In this document: positions 2,704-48,631 of the stretch, one piece after another | Position numbering within the stretch: position 1 is the stretch's first letter | Layout of the letters: every line of letters starts with the position of its first letter | Source of the DNA: an uncultured Bifidobacteriaceae bacterium | GTDB taxonomy: Bacteria > Acidobacteriota > Vicinamibacteria > Vicinamibacterales > UBA2999 | Direction of reading: 5' to 3' | Length of the DNA: 48,754 bases | Assembly: GCA_964526235.1 (NCBI GenBank) | Contig: CAZGLC010000004.1 | Location: 1 to 48,754 of the forward strand | Program-made: the position numbers and the translations under genes | The notes under the pieces: generated by a model | Told to the model about the DNA's origin: nothing | The model's input: the letters and a program-made list of their open reading frames with translations, nothing else | Databases searched by the model: none

Positions 2704-2906
2704 TGCGTCTGCTGCTGTCGCTGGCTGTCGCCGCTGCCGGCTGTGCCGGCGAGCGGACGCCGGCAGGACCGTCGGGTGCATCCTTCGGCGTCTTCGTCAC
2801 GAGCGTGACGAGCACCACCGGGAATCTCGGCGGCCTGGCGGCGGCCGGTTTTACTGCTTCGCGCGCTGACGTCGCTACCGGCTACCGACTACCGGCTACC
2901 GACTAG
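2700..2906 (+). CDS. Small putative lipoprotein (hypothetical; C-terminus encoded by a 7-nt tandem array)
   Basis: An ATGA overlap couples it to the PilZ gene. The signal and lipobox are MMRLLLSLAVAAAG-C. The last 11 codons fall in the GCTACCG array, so the authenticity of the 3' part is uncertain. Confidence 0.4.
   Translation: MMRLLLSLAVAAAGCAGERTPAGPSGASFGVFVTSVTSTTGNLGGLAAAGFTASRADVATGYRLPATD
2874..2906. repeat. Tandem heptamer array (GCTACCG/ACTACCG), about 4.7 units
   Basis: The units are GCTACCG 2874-2880, GCTACCG 2881-2887, ACTACCG 2888-2894, GCTACCG 2895-2901 and ACTAG 2902-2906. The array lies exactly at the convergent junction of ORF 2700-2906 and the MBL gene, and it contains both stop codons. 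Confidence 0.75.
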
Positions 2907-26986: not shown

Positions 26987-26996
26987 ACAGGTAAGC

Positions 26997-27113
26997 CGGG
27001 ATCCGGGATCCGGGATCCGGGATGCGGGATCCGTGGTTCAAACGGTAGACGAGCCTCGCACAGCGAACGTCGAACTTGGAACCCGGATCCCGGATCCCCG
27101 GTCCCGGATCCCG
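26997..27113. repeat. Inverted pair of 7-nt tandem arrays: (CGGGATC)x5 - 50-nt spacer - (CCCGGAT)x4.5
   Basis: The left arm spans 26997-27031 as five units, the fourth being CGGGATG. The right arm spans 27082-27113 as CCCGGAT, CCCGGAT, CCCCGGT, CCCGGAT, CCCG. The arms are reverse complements of each other. The left arm carries five GGG tracts with 4-nt loops. Confidence 0.85.
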
Positions 27114-29722: not shown

Positions 29723-32629
29723 TCAGAAGGTGTAAGAAATGCCCCACTCCAGGACGCGCGGCGGCACGATCAAGGTCGCCGTATTGAACCGCGGGCCCGA
29801 CAACTGCTGCACCGTCAGCACGGTCGCCTTGTTCAGCACGTTGTAGAGATTCAACCGCGCCACCAACTGGTGGCCGCTCGCCAGGTCGAAGCGCTTTTCG
29901 CCGCGCAGGTCGAGCAGGTTGACGCTGTCCAGGCGCCGCGTCCCGATCGGCTCCACGTTGACGGTGAGCGTCGGAATCTGGCGGCCGCCGCCGAACTCCA
30001 CGCGCCGCGCCCACGGCAGGCCGCTCTCGAGGCTGTAGTTCGCCGATGCCAGGATCCCGTAGCGCATCAGATACGACCCGCCGGCGCGGAAGATCCACTC
30101 CCACGTGTTGTCGCTGGCGAAGATCTCCGCGTTCGGATCCTGGGTGTTGATGAACCCTGTCGTGTTGTTGCCGACGTTCGTCACGAGCGGGATGTTCTTC
30201 TTTGTGGCGCTGTACGAGACGCGCGCCTGCCAGTTGTTGGCGTAGCGCCGCGCCACCTGCCACTCGATCGTCTTGAAGGTCGAGTTCGCCGTGTCGTCGT
30301 TGACAACCCAGGGCCGCTGGAACGCGGCGCCCGCGAGCGACGCGGGAAAGTCGTAGTACGTGATCAGGGAGCCCGGGTCGTCGGCGGTGCCGGGCACGCC
30401 GTCAGGGCCGGGATCGCGGTTCGTGATCGGGATGTTGTACACCGCGTACGGGCGCAGCGAGTTCGCCAGCCGCCACTGGTTCTTCGCCTCGGCGTAGACG
30501 CCGGTGACGCGCACCGCCCAGTCGGCCGTCAGCTGCTGCTCGAGCGACAGCAGCAGCTCGTCCTGGTAGCGCTGCGTCGTGTCCGGATTGATCAACCCGC
30601 CGCCGAACGCCGCCCCGATGCCGCGCAAGGTGCGGTCGATGAAGTCGGGGCCGTTCGGGTCGAGGTTGACCTCGCCCGGGTTGTAGTCCCTGTTTCCGTT
30701 GAGGTCGCGCCAGCGGTAGCGCGCCTGCGAGATGGTGTTCTGGTTCGCGATCTGCAGGTCGTCGGAGCTGCGCATGTGGTAGTAGCGGGCCCAACCGCCC
30801 TTGACCACCATCCGGGCGTTCCCCAGCACGTCGTACGCCGCATGGAGGCGCGGCGCGAGGCTCGTGAAGGCAGGCATCTCCTGCCGCTCGTAGCACTCGG
30901 CCGGGAACGTGATGTGTGACGGCGCCTCGGCCGCCTCGCGGCACTGCTCGGGAATCACGGCGGTCTCGTGGGCGAAGCGCGCCCCGAGATTCAGCGTCAG
31001 CCGGCGGGCGATCGTCCAGCTGTCCTGCAGATACAGGTGGTTGAACTGCATCGGCGTGTCGGGCGAGACCGGCGAGTTGAGCAGGATGACCCGATCCGCG
31101 ACGCCGCGGTTGAACTCGAGCGTGTAGTTGCCGATCGGACCGCGCGGCAGCTGGCTCCGCTCCGCGCGCGCCAGGTGCACGTCGAAGCCGGTTTTGACCT
31201 CGTGGCGGCCGGCCGCGCCGCCCGCATTGAACCAGGTGACGTTGCCGCGCGCCTGCCAGCGGTCGATGTTGTTGCGCGAGCCGGTCTCGGCCGCCGCGCC
31301 CCACTGGCGCAGCGTCGTGCGATCCCGCGCGCCGGGCCGCCTGGCCTGGCCGAAGTCGGAGTCGCCTGAACGGACGTAGAAGCTGCCGACGAGGACCGAC
31401 AGCACGAGCCGATCGTTCGGGACCGTCTGGTACTCGCTCTTCCAGACGCCGTCAGCCCCCGGGTTCCGGTAGGTGCGCGTTTCCCATAGCGCGACGGCGC
31501 TGCCGCCCCGCTCGCCGAACCGCCAGTTCGGCTGCGCGAAACCGATGATCTTGTTCGACGGATTGAACTGATACGTCACCTTCGCCGTGATGAACCGCGT
31601 GCGCTCGGTGCCGACGCAGGGCCGGTCGGAGAGCGGTCCGTCCGGATCGTTGTGGTTCACCGGAACAAAGCAGTCGATGATGTTGTCGTGCTGCCGGCGC
31701 TGGCGCGAGGCGCCGAAGAACCAGAGCTTGTCGCGAATCAGCCTGCCGCCGAGCTCGCCGCTCCAGTCGTCGCGCAGCCGCAGCTCGTCGCCCTCCGAGA
31801 TCCCCTGGCGGAGCAAGGTGGGTGTGAGGTTGTTCGACCTGAGATTGTCGCTCGTGCGCGCGTAGTACATCTGTCCGTGGAAATCGTTGCCGCCGCTCTT
31901 GACGACCCCGTTGATCGCCAGGCCGCGGGTCGGCGTGGCCGCGCTGTGGCCCATCACCTGGACCGTCGCCTCTTCCAGCGTCGCGTAGTCGAGGTAGCTG
32001 CCGCTCGGGTTCGATGCCGGGCCCTGCATGATGACGTCTTCGATACCCTGCCACGACTCGCCGAGCTGCCCCATGGTGTGAAACCGTGGCGACTCGTTGA
32101 AGCCGCTGCCGCCGACGTCGAGCCGCACGCTCGTCCGCGCGCTCGGCGTCTGAATCATCAGCGCGTTGAAGCTGTTCCGGCTCGTCGGCAGCAGCTCCAG
32201 CGTCTCGCGCGTCAGCTGCGTCGTCGGCGTCGTGGACGCGACGTCGACGAGCGGCGCGGCGCCCGAGACGGTGACCGTCTCCTGCAGGTTGCCGACGCCC
32301 AGCGTCACGTCGAGGCGCGCGGTGAAGCCGACGGTCAGGCGCACGCCGTCGCGGCGGCTGGTCTGAAAGCCGTTCAGCTCGTAGCTGATCGTATAGGTCC
32401 CGATCGGCAGCGGCGTGAGGCGATAGTCGCCGCGTTCGTCGGTGACGGCGCTGACCTCCGGAACCTGGAGGGCCGGGCTGGTCGCGGTGACGGTGACGCC
32501 GGGCAGGACGGCGCCGCTCTCGTCGGTCACCTGTCCCGTGATGGTGGCGGCCGTGCCCGCCTGCCGGGCGATGGCGTCGGTGGCGGCGAACGCCAAGAGC
32601 AGAGCCGCCGCGACGATCGTTACGCGCAT
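29723..32629 (-). CDS. TonB-dependent receptor with N-terminal CarboxypepD_reg-like domain (TBDR-1)
   Basis: The start is ATG 32629, with GGAGG 5 nt upstream. The signal peptide is MRVTIVAAALLLAFAATDAIA. The N-terminal segment reads ITGQVTDESGAVLPGVTVTATS....TDERGDYRL. It is 968 aa with a C-terminal aromatic residue (...WGISYTF). The track ORF extension to 33715 is rejected. Confidence 0.9.
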   Translation of the reverse strand: MRVTIVAAALLLAFAATDAIARQAGTAATITGQVTDESGAVLPGVTVTATSPALQVPEVSAVTDERGDYRLTPLPIGTYTISYELNGFQTSRRDGVRLTVGFTARLDVTLGVGNLQETVTVSGAAPLVDVASTTPTTQLTRETLELLPTSRNSFNALMIQTPSARTSVRLDVGGSGFNESPRFHTMGQLGESWQGIEDVIMQGPASNPSGSYLDYATLEEATVQVMGHSAATPTRGLAINGVVKSGGNDFHGQMYYARTSDNLRSNNLTPTLLRQGISEGDELRLRDDWSGELGGRLIRDKLWFFGASRQRRQHDNIIDCFVPVNHNDPDGPLSDRPCVGTERTRFITAKVTYQFNPSNKIIGFAQPNWRFGERGGSAVALWETRTYRNPGADGVWKSEYQTVPNDRLVLSVLVGSFYVRSGDSDFGQARRPGARDRTTLRQWGAAAETGSRNNIDRWQARGNVTWFNAGGAAGRHEVKTGFDVHLARAERSQLPRGPIGNYTLEFNRGVADRVILLNSPVSPDTPMQFNHLYLQDSWTIARRLTLNLGARFAHETAVIPEQCREAAEAPSHITFPAECYERQEMPAFTSLAPRLHAAYDVLGNARMVVKGGWARYYHMRSSDDLQIANQNTISQARYRWRDLNGNRDYNPGEVNLDPNGPDFIDRTLRGIGAAFGGGLINPDTTQRYQDELLLSLEQQLTADWAVRVTGVYAEAKNQWRLANSLRPYAVYNIPITNRDPGPDGVPGTADDPGSLITYYDFPASLAGAAFQRPWVVNDDTANSTFKTIEWQVARRYANNWQARVSYSATKKNIPLVTNVGNNTTGFINTQDPNAEIFASDNTWEWIFRAGGSYLMRYGILASANYSLESGLPWARRVEFGGGRQIPTLTVNVEPIGTRRLDSVNLLDLRGEKRFDLASGHQLVARLNLYNVLNKATVLTVQQLSGPRFNTATLIVPPRVLEWGISYTF

Positions 32630-32752
32630 AGCACCTCCGTGCTGAAAAACGGCGCGGGTTGCGTGAGCACGCGGAGTGTATGCGCGCGCGTTGGTGTTGC
32701 GCAACTGCCGACTGCTTGGCGATCGACTCTTCCCTGTGACAGACTTTCGGAC

Positions 32753-33700
32753 GTGCACCGCAGACATCCGGCGCTCGTGCTGCTCGTCGCCGTCGGCGCG
32801 AGCGCGTGCGGCGCCGGCAGCCCCGAGTCGCGCCGCGTCGTGACGCTCGTGACGCATTCGAGCCCCGGCGGCGGGAGCGACGTCTTCCTGCGCGAGATGA
32901 TTCCGCACCTCACCCGCGTGATGGAGGGCACCTTCATCGTCCAGAACATCCAGGGCGGCAGCGGCGCCAAGGCGATGGCGGCCGTCGCGAGCGCACGCTC
33001 GGACGGCACCCTCGTCTATGCGACGACGCCGACGTTTATCTATACGTCGCTGCTGAGCGCTCCGTCGGCGCGGTACACGGATCTCGAACCGCTGGTAAAT
33101 CTGTTCTTCGATCCCGAGGTGCTGTACACGGCAGCCGACTCGAAGTTCGCGACGCTCGGCGACGTGCTCGCCCATGCACGGACCGCCCGCGGCCGCTGGG
33201 GCGCCGCCAATCCGGCCTCGCTCGAGCGGCAGGTGATGGAGCAGCTCAAGCAGAAGGCGGGCGTCGCGCCGGCCATCACCACGTTCGAGGGCGGTGGCGA
33301 CATGCTGATCAACGTGCTGAACCACACGCTCGACATCGGCGTCGGGGAGCTGCAGGAGATCCGGGCGCAGCTCGACGTCGGCCGCCTGCGTCTGCTCGCC
33401 GTCGTCGGCGAGGAGCGGCTGCCGCAGTTTCCGGATGTCCCGACGGTGAAGGAGCAGGGAATCGACCTGGCCGTGCGCAAATTCCGCGGGCTCGCGGGGC
33501 CGAAAGGGATGCCGCCGGAGGCGATCGCCGCCTGGGAGGCCGCGATTCCGAAGCTGCTCGACGACCCTGCGTACCGCAAGCTCTACACCGACAACAGCCT
33601 GCAGCCGGGCTTCATGCCGCACGCCGAATACGTCGCCTTCATGCGTGACTTCGGCGCCCAGACCGAAGCGTTCCTGAAGCAGTCCGGCGTCATTCAGTGA
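32753..33700 (+). CDS. tctC: Tripartite tricarboxylate transporter substrate-binding protein (Bug/TctC family), lipoprotein
   Basis: The GTG start lies within track ORF 31652-33700. The lipobox is VGASA-C. The motifs GGSGAKAMAAVA, FEGGGD and P.VPT..EqG are typical of the Bug family. Confidence 0.85.
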   Translation: MHRRHPALVLLVAVGASACGAGSPESRRVVTLVTHSSPGGGSDVFLREMIPHLTRVMEGTFIVQNIQGGSGAKAMAAVASARSDGTLVYATTPTFIYTSLLSAPSARYTDLEPLVNLFFDPEVLYTAADSKFATLGDVLAHARTARGRWGAANPASLERQVMEQLKQKAGVAPAITTFEGGGDMLINVLNHTLDIGVGELQEIRAQLDVGRLRLLAVVGEERLPQFPDVPTVKEQGIDLAVRKFRGLAGPKGMPPEAIAAWEAAIPKLLDDPAYRKLYTDNSLQPGFMPHAEYVAFMRDFGAQTEAFLKQSGVIQ

Positions 33701-34203
33701 ATCGGGATCTCGCATTCGGCGCCTCGGGCGTGGTCATCGCCGGCGGCTACTACAGGCTCGCCACCTCCATTCCCGACAGCGCGCTCGCGGATGCCGTGGG
33801 CCCGCAGGGGCTGCCAGTCGCGTACGCCGCCGTCCTGGCGCTGCTGTCCCTGATCCTCATCGCACGGTCGCTCCGACCCTCGAACGCAGAACCCGGATCC
33901 CGGATCCCGGATCCCGGATCCCACATCCCGGATCCCGGATCCCGGATCCCGCATCCCGGATCCCGTCTGCTTCGGGTCGCGGGCATGCTCGCCTTCGGGG
34001 CCCTGTACATCGTCCTGGTCCCCTGGCTCGGCTACACCGCGTCGCTCGCCGGACTGCTCTTCGCCGTCACGTGGTACCTGGGCGGCACCGTTCACCGATC
34101 GATGGCCGTCGTCGCAGTGTCCGGCGCCGTTGTCCTCTGGCTGCTCTTCGTGCGGCTGCTCGGCATCCCGCATCCGGCGGGCATCTGGGCCGGGCTCTTC
34201 TGA
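33697..34203 (+). CDS. tctB: Tripartite tricarboxylate transporter small membrane subunit TctB, carrying an in-frame heptamer-array insert
   Basis: A GTGA overlap couples it to tctC, and the gene lies between tctC and tctA. It has four hydrophobic segments. The loop after the second segment is encoded by the array at 33892-33965. Confidence 0.75.
   Translation: MNRDLAFGASGVVIAGGYYRLATSIPDSALADAVGPQGLPVAYAAVLALLSLILIARSLRPSNAEPGSRIPDPGSHIPDPGSRIPHPGSRLLRVAGMLAFGALYIVLVPWLGYTASLAGLLFAVTWYLGGTVHRSMAVVAVSGAVVLWLLFVRLLGIPHPAGIWAGLF
33892..33965. repeat. Tandem heptamer array (CCCGGAT), about 10.5 units, inside tctB
   Basis: The units start at 33892, 33899, 33906, 33913, 33920 (CCCACAT), 33927, 33934, 33941, 33948 (CCCGCAT) and 33955, with a partial CCCG at 33962-33965. 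The array is translated as PGSRIPDPGSHIPDPGSRIPHPGS. Confidence 0.9.
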
Positions 34204-34208
34204 CCGCC

Positions 34209-35687
34209 GTGTCCGCCGACGCGCTCCTGCTGATCGTCCCGTCCGCTGTCGGCGGCGTCATGTGGGGGATCCTCGGCGGCGCGCTGCCGGGCATCTCGCC
34301 GTCGATCACGATGGCGCTGCTGCTGCCGCTGACCTACGGCATGGATCCGACCGCGGCGATCGTGATGCTGGCCGCCACGTACGTGGGTGCCGAGTACGGC
34401 GGGTCGATTCCGGCGATCCTCATTCGCACGCCCGGTACGAACGCCGCGGCCGCCACCGTGGTCGACGGCTACGCGATGAAGGAGCAGGGGAGGGCGGGCG
34501 AGGCGCTCGGCATCTCGCTGTACTCCGGTGTGGTCGGCGGGCTCTTCGGCCTCGGGGTCGTCGTGCTGCTGGCGGAGCCGCTCTCGGCGGTCGCGCTCGC
34601 GTTCACGCCGCAGGCGTACTTCGCGCTCGGCGTGCTGGGCCTCAGTGTGATTGCCTCGCTCGCGCGCGAGTCGCTCCTCAAGGGGCTGATGGCGGGCGTG
34701 CTCGGGCTGATGATTGCCACGATCGGGACCGATCCGGTGACCGGACTCAACAGGTTCACGTTCGGCAGCCCCGAGCTGCTCTCGGGTATCCCGCCGATTC
34801 TTGTCATGGTCGGCCTGTTTGCGGTCGGCGAGCTGCTGGCGGAGAGCGGCGAGGTCGGCTGGCGCCAGGTCACGCCGGAGCGCGCCCGCATCCGCTTTCC
34901 CGGCCCGGCGATGTGGCGGCGGATCGCGCTGCCGCAGATGATCGGCTCGGTCATCGGCGCCTTCGAAGGGATGATGCCGGGCGGCGGCGGCGCGGTCTCG
35001 TCGTTTCTCGCCTACAACGAGGCGCGGCGCTGGTCGCGGCACAAGGAGGAGTTCGGCCACGGCTCGCCGGAAGGGATTGCCGCGCCGGAGGCGGCCAACA
35101 ACACCGTGGCGTGCACGGCGCTCGTCCCGATCCTCAGCCTCGGCATTCCGAGCTCCAACTCCTCGGCGGTCCTGCTCGGCGGCTTCCTCCTTCACGGACT
35201 CATTCCCGGACCGATGCTCTTCGTCTCGAATTCGGACGTCGTCACGGGCCTGTTCGCGGGCCTGCTGACGGCGAACATCGCGATGGTGATCGTCGGCTAC
35301 GTGATGATGGGCCCCTGCATCTGGCTCGTGAGCCGGCCGCGTCCCTATCTGATGGCGTTCATCTACGCGCTCGTCGTCTCGGGCGTCTATGCGATCGAGA
35401 CGAGCCTCTTTCAGGTCGGCGTGGCGCTCGTCTTCGGCCTGGTCGGCTACGCGCTGCGGTACCTCGAAGTGTCGCTGCTCCCGATGGTGCTCGGCGTCGT
35501 GCTCGGCTTCATGGTGGAGTCGAACTACCGCCGCGCGCTCGTGCTGTCGGGAGGCGACCACATGACGTTCCTGCAGGATCCGGTCTCGGCCGGCTTTTTG
35601 ATCGCGGCCACCCTGTTCCTGCTCGGCTCCACGGCTCATCACCTCGTCCGGGGAGGAAAACGCCCCCGGATGGACGTGCCGGCATGA
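34209..35687 (+). CDS. tctA: Tripartite tricarboxylate transporter large permease TctA
   Basis: GTG 34209 lies 5 nt after the tctB stop. The motifs GALPGISPS...ALLLP.TY, YGGSIPAILI.TPG and DGY.M are typical of TctA. The track ORF start at 34071 is rejected. Confidence 0.9.
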   Translation: MSADALLLIVPSAVGGVMWGILGGALPGISPSITMALLLPLTYGMDPTAAIVMLAATYVGAEYGGSIPAILIRTPGTNAAAATVVDGYAMKEQGRAGEALGISLYSGVVGGLFGLGVVVLLAEPLSAVALAFTPQAYFALGVLGLSVIASLARESLLKGLMAGVLGLMIATIGTDPVTGLNRFTFGSPELLSGIPPILVMVGLFAVGELLAESGEVGWRQVTPERARIRFPGPAMWRRIALPQMIGSVIGAFEGMMPGGGGAVSSFLAYNEARRWSRHKEEFGHGSPEGIAAPEAANNTVACTALVPILSLGIPSSNSSAVLLGGFLLHGLIPGPMLFVSNSDVVTGLFAGLLTANIAMVIVGYVMMGPCIWLVSRPRPYLMAFIYALVVSGVYAIETSLFQVGVALVFGLVGYALRYLEVSLLPMVLGVVLGFMVESNYRRALVLSGGDHMTFLQDPVSAGFLIAATLFLLGSTAHHLVRGGKRPRMDVPA

Positions 35688-37045
35688 CGCCGGTGGCTGA
35701 AACGCTGGCGGCGTGGCTCGCCGGTGTCGACGCGAAAGCACTTCCCGCCGATACCGTTGAGACCGCGCGGAAGCTGTTTCTCGACGTTGCGGGGCTGTGT
35801 GTCGCGGCGCGGCGCGAGCCGTATGTCACGGCGACCCTCGCGGCCGTCGATCGCGGCGGCGCATGCACGGCGGTCGGGCACGCGGGTACGTGCGACGCGT
35901 TCGGAGCCGCGCTCGTCAACGGCACCGCCGCGCACGGCGAAGACTTCGACGACACGTTCGAGGGGGGCCCGGTGCACTCGGGCGCCGTCATCGTCCCCGC
36001 CGTGATGGCGGCGTGCGAGCGCGAAGGGCTTGGCGGCGACCGGCTGCTCGTCGGGATCGTCACCGGCGTCGAGCTCCTGTGCCGGTTCAGCCTCGTCGCG
36101 CCGATGGCGACGCACAATGCGGGCTTTCATCCGACGGCCATCTTCGGCGCCCTCGCGGCGGCCGGCGCGTCCGGCGCCTCGCTCCGGCTGCCGCCGCCCG
36201 CGCTGGCGTCGGCCTTCGGCATCGCGGGCAGCATGGCGTCGGGCATCATCGAGTATCTGAGCGAAGGCACCTGGACCAAGCGGATGCACGCCGGATGGGC
36301 CGCGCAGTCCGGCATGCGCGCGGCGCTCATGGCGCGCGGCGGCTTCGTCGGTCCGCGGACGGTGCTCGAGGGGCCGAACGGCGTCTACCGCGCGTTCGCT
36401 CCATCGCGCCCGCCCGACTTCGCGCCGCTTCTCGACGGCCTTGGCTCGCGCTGGGTGATGCCGTCGGTGGCGTTCAAGCCGTACCCGTGCGGGACGATGG
36501 TGCAGCCGTTCATCGACTGTGCGCTGAAGCTCCGCGCCGATGGCGTGCGGGCCGGGGATGTGCGGGAGATCGTGTGCGAGGTGGCGCAGGGCACGGTCCC
36601 GCGGTTGTGGGAGCCGCTCGCGTCGAAGCACCGCCCGCCGACGCCGTACGCCGCCAAGTTCAGCACGCCGTTCTGCATGGCGGTCGCCTTCACCGACGGC
36701 CGCGTCGGCCTGGCGCAGTTCAGCGAAGACCGCATTCACGACCCGGCCGTTCTCGGGCTGGCCTCGAAGATCCGGTACACCATCAATCCCGCCGACGAGT
36801 ACCCGCGCAAGTTCAGTGGGCACCTGCGCGCCGCGCTCGGGGACGGCGGGGAGCGGGAGTACCGTCAGCCGTGCATGCGCGGCGGGGCGGACGCGCCGCT
36901 GCCGCTCGCGGAGCTGGAGGCGAAGTTCATGGACAACGCGCGGTACGGTGGATGGACCGGCGCGACGGCGGAGCGGCTGCGCGAGATGTCGCAGGCGCTC
37001 TTTATCCAGCCGACACTCGAGGTGCTGAAGGAGTTCAGGGGATGA
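35684..37045 (+). CDS. MmgE/PrpD family protein (paralogue 2)
   Basis: An ATGA overlap couples it to tctA. The motifs D..G......R and AAHGEDFDD are present, and the 453-aa protein has a PrpD-type architecture. It is the only real part of track ORF 34130-37045. Confidence 0.9.
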   Translation: MTPVAETLAAWLAGVDAKALPADTVETARKLFLDVAGLCVAARREPYVTATLAAVDRGGACTAVGHAGTCDAFGAALVNGTAAHGEDFDDTFEGGPVHSGAVIVPAVMAACEREGLGGDRLLVGIVTGVELLCRFSLVAPMATHNAGFHPTAIFGALAAAGASGASLRLPPPALASAFGIAGSMASGIIEYLSEGTWTKRMHAGWAAQSGMRAALMARGGFVGPRTVLEGPNGVYRAFAPSRPPDFAPLLDGLGSRWVMPSVAFKPYPCGTMVQPFIDCALKLRADGVRAGDVREIVCEVAQGTVPRLWEPLASKHRPPTPYAAKFSTPFCMAVAFTDGRVGLAQFSEDRIHDPAVLGLASKIRYTINPADEYPRKFSGHLRAALGDGGEREYRQPCMRGGADAPLPLAELEAKFMDNARYGGWTGATAERLREMSQALFIQPTLEVLKEFRG

Positions 37046-48561: not shown

Positions 48562-48568
48562 ACACGAA

Positions 48569-48631
48569 GGGGTCAGGGCACAGGGGTCAGGGGTCAGCGA
48601 GTTCGCCCTGCCCCCTCCCCTGACCCCTGAC
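48569..48631. repeat. Palindromic heptamer array (GGGGTCA type) / terminator-like hairpin after TBDR-2
   Basis: The left arm reads GGGGTCA GGGCACA GGGGTCA GGGGTCA (48569-48596). The right arm reads CCCTGCCCCCTCCCCTGACCCCTGAC (48606-48631). GTCAGGGGTCAG (48586-48597) is the exact reverse complement of CTGACCCCTGAC (48620-48631). Confidence 0.8.

Follow-up and report, generated by a model that had tools for sequence, protein, structure and literature searches.

A CCCGGAT heptamer array carried in frame by tctB is a member of a mostly intergenic period-7 repeat class of Vicinamibacterales

Results

The tctCBA operon and the array in tctB

The window analysed here is a stretch of 48,754 nt (contig CAZGLC010000004.1 of assembly GCA_964526235.1) from an uncultured bacterium placed in the Vicinamibacterales, a group of soil bacteria in the phylum Acidobacteriota. 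It contains a tctCBA transporter operon, and the middle of its tctB gene is occupied by a tandem array of the heptamer CCCGGAT, the subject of this report (Table 1). The GTG start of tctB overlaps the tctC stop (GTGA), and an overlap of this kind (xTGA) was found in 40 of 47 loci. The start of tctA, GTG 34209, lies 5 nt past the tctB stop; this spacing had been read by a model from the bare letters of the window, in what we call below the original prediction, and it is borne out by a gene call made independently on a different contig. GTG 32753 is an alternative start for tctC. The TctB profile (PF07331) matched the tctB product with 55.8 bits, against a gathering cutoff of 29.1.

Direct reading and Tandem Repeats Finder (TRF) agreed with the original prediction that the array consists of ten CCCGGAT-type units and a partial one, with variants at units 5 and 9. 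The order is CCCGGAT four times, CCCACAT, CCCGGAT three times, CCCGCAT, CCCGGAT and then CCCG, 74 bases in all. TRF gave a period of 7, 10.6 copies, 91% matches and a score of 127, the top score in the window, and the longest pure CCCGGAT runs are 4 and 3 units. A 14-mer made of two units, allowing up to two mismatches, matched the window 27 times, versus 1.2 ± 1.2 times in shuffled sequences, none of which (0/100) reached 27.

The array had been placed in frame within the 168 codons of tctB, after the second hydrophobic helix, and the Pfam match, the coding phase and an AlphaFold2 (AF2) model all put it there. A codon log-odds model, for which the window genes served as training set, gave the same strand and the same phase on either side of the array, which is therefore read through. 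A classifier of intragenic arrays based on a threshold of G+C at third codon positions was miscalibrated on tctB itself, and the codon log-odds model was used instead.

Six-frame translation confirmed that three units encode one heptapeptide, permuted PGSRIPD being read in the forward frames and GSGIRDP in the reverse ones. No stop codon occurs in any of the six frames. The list of seven trinucleotides from which this had first been deduced was incomplete, as the variant units add CAC, ACA, CAT, CGC, GCA and others, but none of these is a stop codon either. Both antisense open reading frames (ORFs) mentioned with it, 33694-34173 and 33750-34010, exist. Every frame of the unit encodes a peptide rich in Pro, Gly, Ser, Arg and Asp, with a single Ile; at the variant units the changes are non-synonymous (R to H, D to H). 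On the minus strand the unit reads GGGATCC, that is, the palindrome GGATCC plus one base, so that a single array is 6/7 self-complementary.

Table 1. Genes and repeat features of the window. TM, transmembrane helix; aa, amino acids; z, folding z-score.
Feature	Position	Strand	Basis or remark
Period-7 array (GCTACCG/ACTACCG)x4.6	2874..2905		TRF
Left arm of inverted pair, CCCGGAT-type; + strand reads (CCGGGAT)x5.4	26994..27033	-	TRF and unit matching
Right arm of inverted pair, (GGATCCC)x5	27078..27113	+	5' end of DASS transporter ORF; encodes GTRIPDPRSRIPS
tctC (periplasmic binding protein)	32777..33700	+	Pfam TctC 7e-31; start per gene call on independent contig L196
tctB coding sequence, 168 aa	33697..34203	+	Pfam TctB 7e-15; codon phase on both sides of array; orthologue alignment
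TM2-TM3 loop segment of TctB, aa 58-93	33868..33975	+	Hypervariable among orthologues; AF2 coil
CCCGGAT array, 10.6 units	33892..33965	+ (C-rich strand is sense)	TRF and direct reading
tctA (large membrane subunit)	34209..35687	+	Pfam TctA 3e-135; identical product called on contig L195
Inverted pair of another heptamer, (AGGGGTC)n / (GACCCCT)n	48568..48631		TRF; predicted hairpin -43.7 kcal/mol, z -2.9

A class of period-7 repeats in Vicinamibacterales

The array in tctB is a member of a genome-wide class of period-7 repeats of Vicinamibacterales, found mostly between genes. When one genome per species was scanned for (CCCGGAT)x3, at least 114 stretches were returned, and the census that follows rests on the matches listed. 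About 64 of them came from metagenome-assembled genomes (MAGs) of Acidobacteriota/Vicinamibacterales, often with several contigs per MAG; the others came from Streptomyces, Bacteroidota, Verrucomicrobiales and further groups. In 477 kb of acidobacterial loci, TRF found 120 period-7 arrays, versus 1 period-6 and 10 period-8 arrays. The ascertained CCCGGAT unit made up 54 of the 120 and other units made up 66; neighbouring arrays were built, for example, from GGGATTC, GGGATTA, GGGATCA and CCCGAGT heptamers, and a G3 tract was present in 51 of 108 other period-7 units of these genomes. Genome-wide enrichment of CCCGGAT, which the original prediction had left to be checked, was thus apparent from the window shuffles, the genome scan and the TRF census.

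Arrays with four G-tracts were the most frequent (34/81, in a sample ascertained on at least three perfect units), followed by those with five (18) and six (11), while ten or more tracts were counted in 3/81. When the neighbours of an intergenic array could be classified (n=47), they were tandem in 26 cases, convergent in 15 and divergent in 6, a trend that was not strongly significant. Many arrays of the acidobacterial loci began a few bases past stop codons. CCCGGAT-type arrays were variable in length and had no fixed ends, and do not look like a defined mobile element.

Some arrays came as inverted pairs. The G-rich arm was 5' in 9 of 9 pairs, eight from the acidobacterial loci (L022, L040, L046, L049, L050, L054, L067, L094) and one at 26994-27113 of the window; the reverse order was never seen (0/9). 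This order reads identically on both strands, and inverted arrays within tctB loops (L117, L127, L128, L132, L136) likewise had the G-rich arm first. The spacers between arms were mostly dissimilar; only those of L040 and L050, from one MAG, looked related by eye.

The repeat was also met in other phyla, in loci of Verrucomicrobiales (L010), Bdellovibrionales (L023, 38% G+C), Prolixibacteraceae (L003) and Streptomyces (L017), where it was flanked by arrays of other heptamers, among them GGCAAAT, GGGATAC, GGCATCC, CCGGCAA and CTCGGAC. Clustered period-7 arrays may extend far beyond the two groups for which they have been published, and our literature search found no report of heptamer repeats specific to Acidobacteria or Vicinamibacterales.

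The tctB copy is not alone in being translated. Among the acidobacterial matches listed, 12 of 71 CCCGGAT elements lay in read-through ORFs, and for eight of these the protein was verified by Pfam: a VWA protein, UvrC (whose RNase H-like endonuclease domain is split by the insert), an HlyD-type adaptor, a CysG-like siroheme synthase (with an inverted pair between its domains, in the linker), a ComF-type phosphoribosyltransferase, an M28 peptidase, a RimO/MiaB-type radical-SAM enzyme and a DnaE2-type PolIII alpha (whose PHP domain carries an inverted pair). In single in-frame arrays the sense strand was usually the C-rich one. Taken with TctB, these host genes have no specific tie to surface, host-interaction or restriction-modification functions, and the translation of arrays in housekeeping proteins speaks against a dedicated switch in every copy. 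The composition of the encoded peptide suits a flexible linker, which may be why the unit persists in genes.

The TM2-TM3 loop of TctB

TctB is a poorly conserved protein with four transmembrane helices and a cytoplasmic N-terminus (PMC5812351). The AF2 model, built from a 40-sequence alignment and of low confidence overall (mean predicted local distance difference test score, pLDDT, 60.7), had helices at residues 3-24, 38-58, 88-129 and 134-155. Residues 59-87 were modelled as coil, with pLDDT below 50 at 63-69 and 73-82. The array falls in this loop between TM2 and TM3, which is probably disordered and which, given the topology of the family, would lie on the cytoplasmic side.

In the alignment the TM2-TM3 loop was the sole hypervariable part of TctB. 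The best 120 homologues (49-74% identical by BLASTP, 147-187 aa) came from Acidobacteria-type MAGs and metagenomes, and most close relatives had a heptamer-derived loop peptide, for example RIPDPGSRIPDPG or RTPDPESRIPDSG. Loop DNA was then compared in 80 metagenomic loci, the best 80 of 96 tblastn matches, in which the segment ranged from 45 to 207 nt. In some lineages the loop was short and free of repeats (L118, L134 and L149, with 15-17 aa, L160 and L161). Single heptamer arrays filled others: (CCCGCAC)3 followed by (CCCGGAT)5 in L116, (CCCCGAT)n in L115, and further arrays in L119, L121 and L122. Inverted arrays able to form a hairpin within the coding sequence were found in L128, which has the unit of the window array, and in L117, L127, L132 and L136/L178. 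Palindromes of a repetitive extragenic palindrome (REP)-like kind occupied the same place elsewhere, for example GTCCGGCTGAAGCCGGAC (L120, L147, L157, L168), a larger CGTAGTG...CACTACG element (L123, L130, L131, L143) and a CCGGAAAAGGGGTC... palindrome (L139, L153). Two of these palindrome cores were also present outside tctB, in other loci.

Counted together, the loci with REP-like palindromes in the tctB loop were L120, L123, L125, L130, L131, L139, L143, L147, L153, L157 and L168. The palindromes are translated in frame, GTCCGGCTGAAGCCGGAC as 'VRLKPD' or 'IRLQPD', GGTCCGCCTGAAGGCGGAC as 'PPEGGH', and CCGGAAAAGGGGTC.../...GACCCCTTTTCC as 'EKGSG...TPDPF'. L128 (3001-3465), whose loop holds a near-perfect (GGGATCC)n/(GGATCCC)n hairpin, has an in-frame stop four codons short of the C-terminus that is usual (GISQP*GL); the stop could be a sequencing error, or could mark a slightly shorter protein or a pseudogene.

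Arrays of period 7, 14 or 21 reached 2.6 per kb in the loop versus 0.096 per kb elsewhere in the same loci, a 27-fold difference. The TM3 motif was in the frame of TM1-TM2 in 80 of 80 loci, with no frameshift (0/80). The loop, filled with repeats and kept in frame, thus behaves like intergenic DNA that is bound to stay in frame. An ordinary linker, encoded in orthologues by non-repetitive codons, had been considered at the outset; the orthologue alignment contains repeat-encoded loops of differing length, together with some lineages whose loop is repeat-free.

It could be that the heptads themselves are used, as a flexible linker of tunable length that modulates the interaction between TctB and TctA. 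Loops of the heptad type are kept across many orthologues at 60-74% identity, their lengths change by whole heptads (42-nt steps), and there is a precedent in NeuO, whose activity scales with how many RLKTQDS heptads it has. However, several orthologues manage with the 15-17-aa repeat-free loop (L118, L134, L149), and loop content is unrelated between lineages, with PGSRIPD, SPEPRA, VRLKPD and EKTPDPF types. The variant units of the window array change residues, so no constraint on the peptide is visible, and AF2 gives the segment pLDDT values below 50. Such a role for the protein sequence appears very unlikely to us.

Length changes and the question of a switch

Simulation of unit gains and losses agreed with the original prediction that only changes of three units keep the tctB frame. 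A change of three units gave an intact TctB of 161 or 175 aa, and a change of one or two units shifted the frame after codon ~90. With one unit more or two units less, a 658-665-aa TctB'-X-TctA ORF was obtained, in which ~85 out-of-frame residues link the TctB N-terminal half to full-length TctA; with one unit less or two more, translation entered the third frame, open for more than 2 kb. A programmed TctB'-TctA fusion was considered and set aside: long open alternative frames are common in this DNA of 69% G+C, and the fusion ORF was therefore given no meaning.

Array lengths were compared at orthologous sites. The difference was 0 at 5 of 5 independent sites whose flanks were at least 98.8% identical, and 21, 42, 42, 51 and 93 nt at flank identities of 92-97%. 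Within tctB loops, L121 and L122, as well as L130 and L131, were each 42 nt apart, that is, six units or two heptads. Six protein clusters (at least 90% identity) with heptamer-derived loops, comprising 13 members on many contigs, each had identical loop lengths within the cluster, and their members differed only through substitutions or start-codon calls. As for the window array, its units are 91% alike, while the flanks in tctB are ~80% identical to the nearest orthologue, which implies that the array has turned over since that divergence. These sequence comparisons indicate slippage that would act on an evolutionary time scale and be filtered for frame, and not strain-level hypermutation.

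No second allele of the tctB array was found, and the exact TctB was absent from the protein collection. The nearest TctB there was only 70-74% identical, so that the collection holds no variant from the same species. Exact matches to TctA and TctC came only from Logan contigs, an independent assembly of run ERR4904392, which is the same population as the window. One of these contigs, L195, corresponds to window positions 33936-36387 (100% identity) and another, L196, to 29777-33918 (99.98%); both end inside the array.

The original prediction had seen in the array a possible slipped-strand contingency locus. Frequent gain or loss of single units would then switch tctB, and with it tctA by polarity or uncoupling, in the way of the AAGACTC tract of neuO in E. 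coli K1. The geometry is identical to that of neuO, a full-length protein being made only at frame-keeping copy numbers. The array is also long (10.6 units) and fairly pure (91%), the hairpin potential of both strands could favour slippage, and heterogeneous alleles would cause contigs to end in the array as L195 and L196 do. Such breaks, however, are probably explained by pure-repeat 31-mers common to other arrays, and they are not evidence of heterogeneity. The tract carries two interruptions and its pure runs reach only 4 and 3 units; array lengths were unchanged between near-identical sequences, and no orthologue among the 80 was out of frame. What would be switched is an accessory nutrient-transporter subunit rather than a surface or host-interaction gene, and the same unit is mostly intergenic and is also read in frame within housekeeping genes such as those for UvrC, RimO/MiaB-type and DnaE2-type proteins. 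For related heptamers, Rehm et al. considered phase variation unlikely (PMC4692102). The proposal of a switch was not sustained by these data, and we now hold it to be quite improbable.

Predicted folding of the array

The sense RNA of 33880-33980 was predicted to fold into 6-bp GGAUCC helices parted by C.C mismatches (-51.9 kcal/mol, z -3.0), and an equivalent hairpin was predicted for the G-rich DNA strand (-32.6 kcal/mol, z -3.6). Among orthologue loops (n=75, non-redundant), 23% had z below -2 and 16% below -3, versus 3-9% and 0-1%, respectively, in three control segments of the same gene. The median z of the loops was nevertheless equal to that of the controls (-0.17 versus -0.05 to -0.20), so that the hairpin is a property of a subset of inserts and not a conserved feature of the loop. 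A universally selected loop hairpin was accordingly rejected, only a subset of ~20% being strongly structured. Rfam had no match anywhere in the window, and a scan for terminators and promoters found nothing at the array and no terminator-like T-run.

These folds could be selected as an RNA structure internal to the operon, a REP-like barrier to 3'-5' decay, a pause site or an attenuator, that raises the amount of tctC product over that of tctBA. REP hairpins between malE and malF and between hisJ and hisQ stabilise the upstream mRNA of a binding protein, and the overlap of tctC with tctB, frequent among the loci as given above, leaves no intergenic room, so a barrier serving tctC would have to sit inside tctB. 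The strong predicted hairpin of the window, the excess of orthologue loops with z below -3 and the preference of intergenic arrays for gene 3' ends are all in line with such a structure. The equal medians speak against it, as do the many orthologue loops that are either short and unstructured or made of a single array that is not self-complementary. The array lacks a T-run terminator and belongs to no Rfam family, and decay stopping within the coding sequence would produce non-stop tctB messages. We regard a selected RNA structure as unlikely.

The original prediction had also pointed to a G-quadruplex (G4) motif on the template strand, (GGGATCC)n. The motif is there, since the minus strand of the array has two matches to the expression G3+N1-7 x4. 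G4Hunter scores, on the other hand, all stayed under the usual cutoff of 1.2: the array scored 0.91, no 25-nt window exceeded 1.16, and the pure unit scored 0.71. When quadruplexes were enabled in folding, the minimum-free-energy structure was still the GGATCC hairpin, and the G4 is not predicted to dominate. A G4 of this strand, or an i-motif of the C-rich strand, would affect replication or transcription. The four-tract mode of our class recalls the four-unit preference of GGGAATC and GGGGA(C/T)T, which form G4s in vitro (PMC4692102). By this analogy a role at the DNA level is possible. But two Cs of each unit pair with Gs, a G3 tract is found in only 51 of the 108 other period-7 units, and the mRNA is the C-rich strand, so that an RNA G4 cannot form. 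Altogether a G4 or i-motif is, in our estimation, a highly improbable explanation of the array.

Other period-7 arrays in the window

Three CCCGGAT-type arrays lie within 48.7 kb. Besides that of tctB, these are the two inverted arms that had been noticed near 26997-27113 and that unit matching delimits slightly differently (Table 1). The pair sits between a gene for an NHL-repeat protein and a gene for a DASS (Na_sulph_symp) transporter, and is predicted to fold into a hairpin of -94.3 kcal/mol (z -7.7). The only in-frame start of the DASS ORF is GTG 27033, within the spacer of the hairpin, and from there the coding signal of the codon log-odds model is in the matching phase. As Pfam matches the ORF only from residue 29 onwards, the N-terminal tail of the transporter, GTRIPDPRSRIPS, appears to be encoded by the right arm. 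If both arms are co-transcribed, the predicted hairpin would enclose the start codon. The pair of another heptamer at 48568-48631 begins a few bases past the stop codon of a gene whose product ends in ...QLGFRFAF.

Discussion

We think it probable, with some reserve, that the array in tctB is a heptamer repeat of a lineage-wide class, driven by slippage and held in frame in a permissive loop of TctB. As a rule, arrays of this class are intergenic, usually beside a gene 3' end, often with four G-tracts and sometimes as inverted pairs that may form hairpins. With no stop in any frame and a peptide rich in Pro, Gly, Ser, Arg and Asp, an array could survive in those genes that tolerate a flexible insert. 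In TctB it fills the low-confidence TM2-TM3 loop, read there as ~3.7 PGSRIPD heptads. Its length would drift by replication slippage, probably aided by the self-complementary hairpin, and selection would remove frame-breaking changes, so that the surviving ones occur in 21-nt steps. The loop would then act as a sink for heptamer arrays, inverted arrays or REP-like palindromes alike. Slippage as the mechanism, the neutrality of the insert and the absence of a dedicated function are what we infer from these comparisons.

Several observations weigh against this account. The count of 0/80 frameshifted genes is biased toward intact ones, because these rank higher in a tblastn selection. The control arrays on which length stability was judged are shorter than the window array, which with its ~10-11 units is among the rare long members of the class and might mutate more readily than they do; its purity of 91% suggests recent expansion. 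Repeats are 27 times as dense in this short loop as around it, more than simple tolerance obviously predicts, and the excess of strongly folding loops makes some selection for nucleic-acid structure possible.

This concentration of unrelated repeats of an intergenic type in a single loop is unexplained, and we find it the most interesting residue of the analysis. One way to accommodate it is to see in the TM2-TM3 segment a conserved intragenic 'intergenic island' that in one lineage after another would take in intergenic repeats of the genome itself (heptamer arrays, inverted arrays with the G-rich arm first, REP-like palindromes), with the frame always preserved, the insert being kept because a nucleic-acid structure there tunes the ratio of tctC to tctBA, or because slippage tunes or switches TctB and TctA. 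We doubt that this is the case; were it so, heptameric repeats would be functional elements internal to operons that are also translated. TctB offers a natural test case of repeats that are tolerated as opposed to used as operon RNA or DNA structures.

If instead the array is a tolerated member of the slippage-prone class, as we favour, heptameric G-tract repeats, so far detailed only for Xanthomonas and cyanobacteria, extend to Acidobacteriota, and a stop-free, nearly self-complementary unit is carried in frame through many proteins in the manner of the Rickettsia palindromic elements (RPEs). For annotation, PGSRIPD and GSGIRDP stretches in proteins of Vicinamibacterales, together with the long antisense ORFs that run across them, should be taken as repeat-derived.

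The closest known systems are the heptameric repeats GGGAATC of Xanthomonas and GGGGA(C/T)T of Nostoc, described by Rehm et al. in 2015, which form G4s in vitro (PMC4692102). They are biased toward non-coding DNA, lie near stop codons, are scarce between divergent ORFs and prefer four units; stem-loops may arise from their inverted pairs, and the authors thought phase variation unlikely and gave the function as unknown (PMC4692102). The repeats reported here resemble them in having a 7-nt unit with a G3 tract, a genome-wide spread with a strong non-coding bias, a location near stop codons and rarely between divergent genes, a mode of four, occasional inverted pairs, and repeat numbers that vary between related genomes. 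They differ in that the GGGATCC unit is self-complementary through GGATCC, has a lower predicted G4 propensity and belongs to another phylum, Acidobacteriota. The tctB copy differs further, since it is in frame within a coding sequence and translated, whereas the Xanthomonas and Nostoc class is under-represented in ORFs. From the shared properties, we assign the array to this known kind of repeat, as a new member with a new GGATCC-containing unit.

The short tandemly repeated repetitive (STRR) heptamers of the cyanobacteria Calothrix and Anabaena are dispersed tandem heptanucleotide arrays, mainly non-coding and restricted to one lineage. Here too several different heptanucleotide units form tandem arrays that are mainly non-coding and lineage-bound, although both the units and the phylum differ. 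We know of no STRR that occupies a conserved loop in frame.

In neuO of E. coli K1, a capsule-modification gene carried by a prophage, high-frequency switching is mediated by a perfect heptanucleotide tract at the 5' end, present in 2-93 copies (PMC3046976). The tctB array shares with it a heptanucleotide repeat in a coding region, one heptad for three units and a frame kept by multiples of three. Unlike the neuO tract it is interrupted, lies in mid-gene, concerns a transporter subunit and belongs to a genome-wide class, and no length polymorphism was detected among close relatives.

RPEs are inserted in frame in protein-coding genes (PMC10969869). As with RPEs, the heptamer arrays are dispersed repeats with predicted hairpins that occur in frame, at positions that are structurally tolerant, in housekeeping genes unrelated to one another; RPEs, however, are defined elements of ~100-150 bp with a conserved sequence, whereas the tctB insert is a tandem array of variable length and without defined ends, for which no sign of transposition came up, no search aimed at it having been made. 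Finally, the REPs and bacterial interspersed mosaic elements (BIMEs) of malE-malF and hisJ-hisQ place a G+C-rich hairpin behind the gene for the binding protein in a transporter operon, as is predicted here after tctC. Those elements are extragenic and their effect was tested by experiment, whereas the tctB hairpin is intragenic and its effect on the mRNA conjectural.

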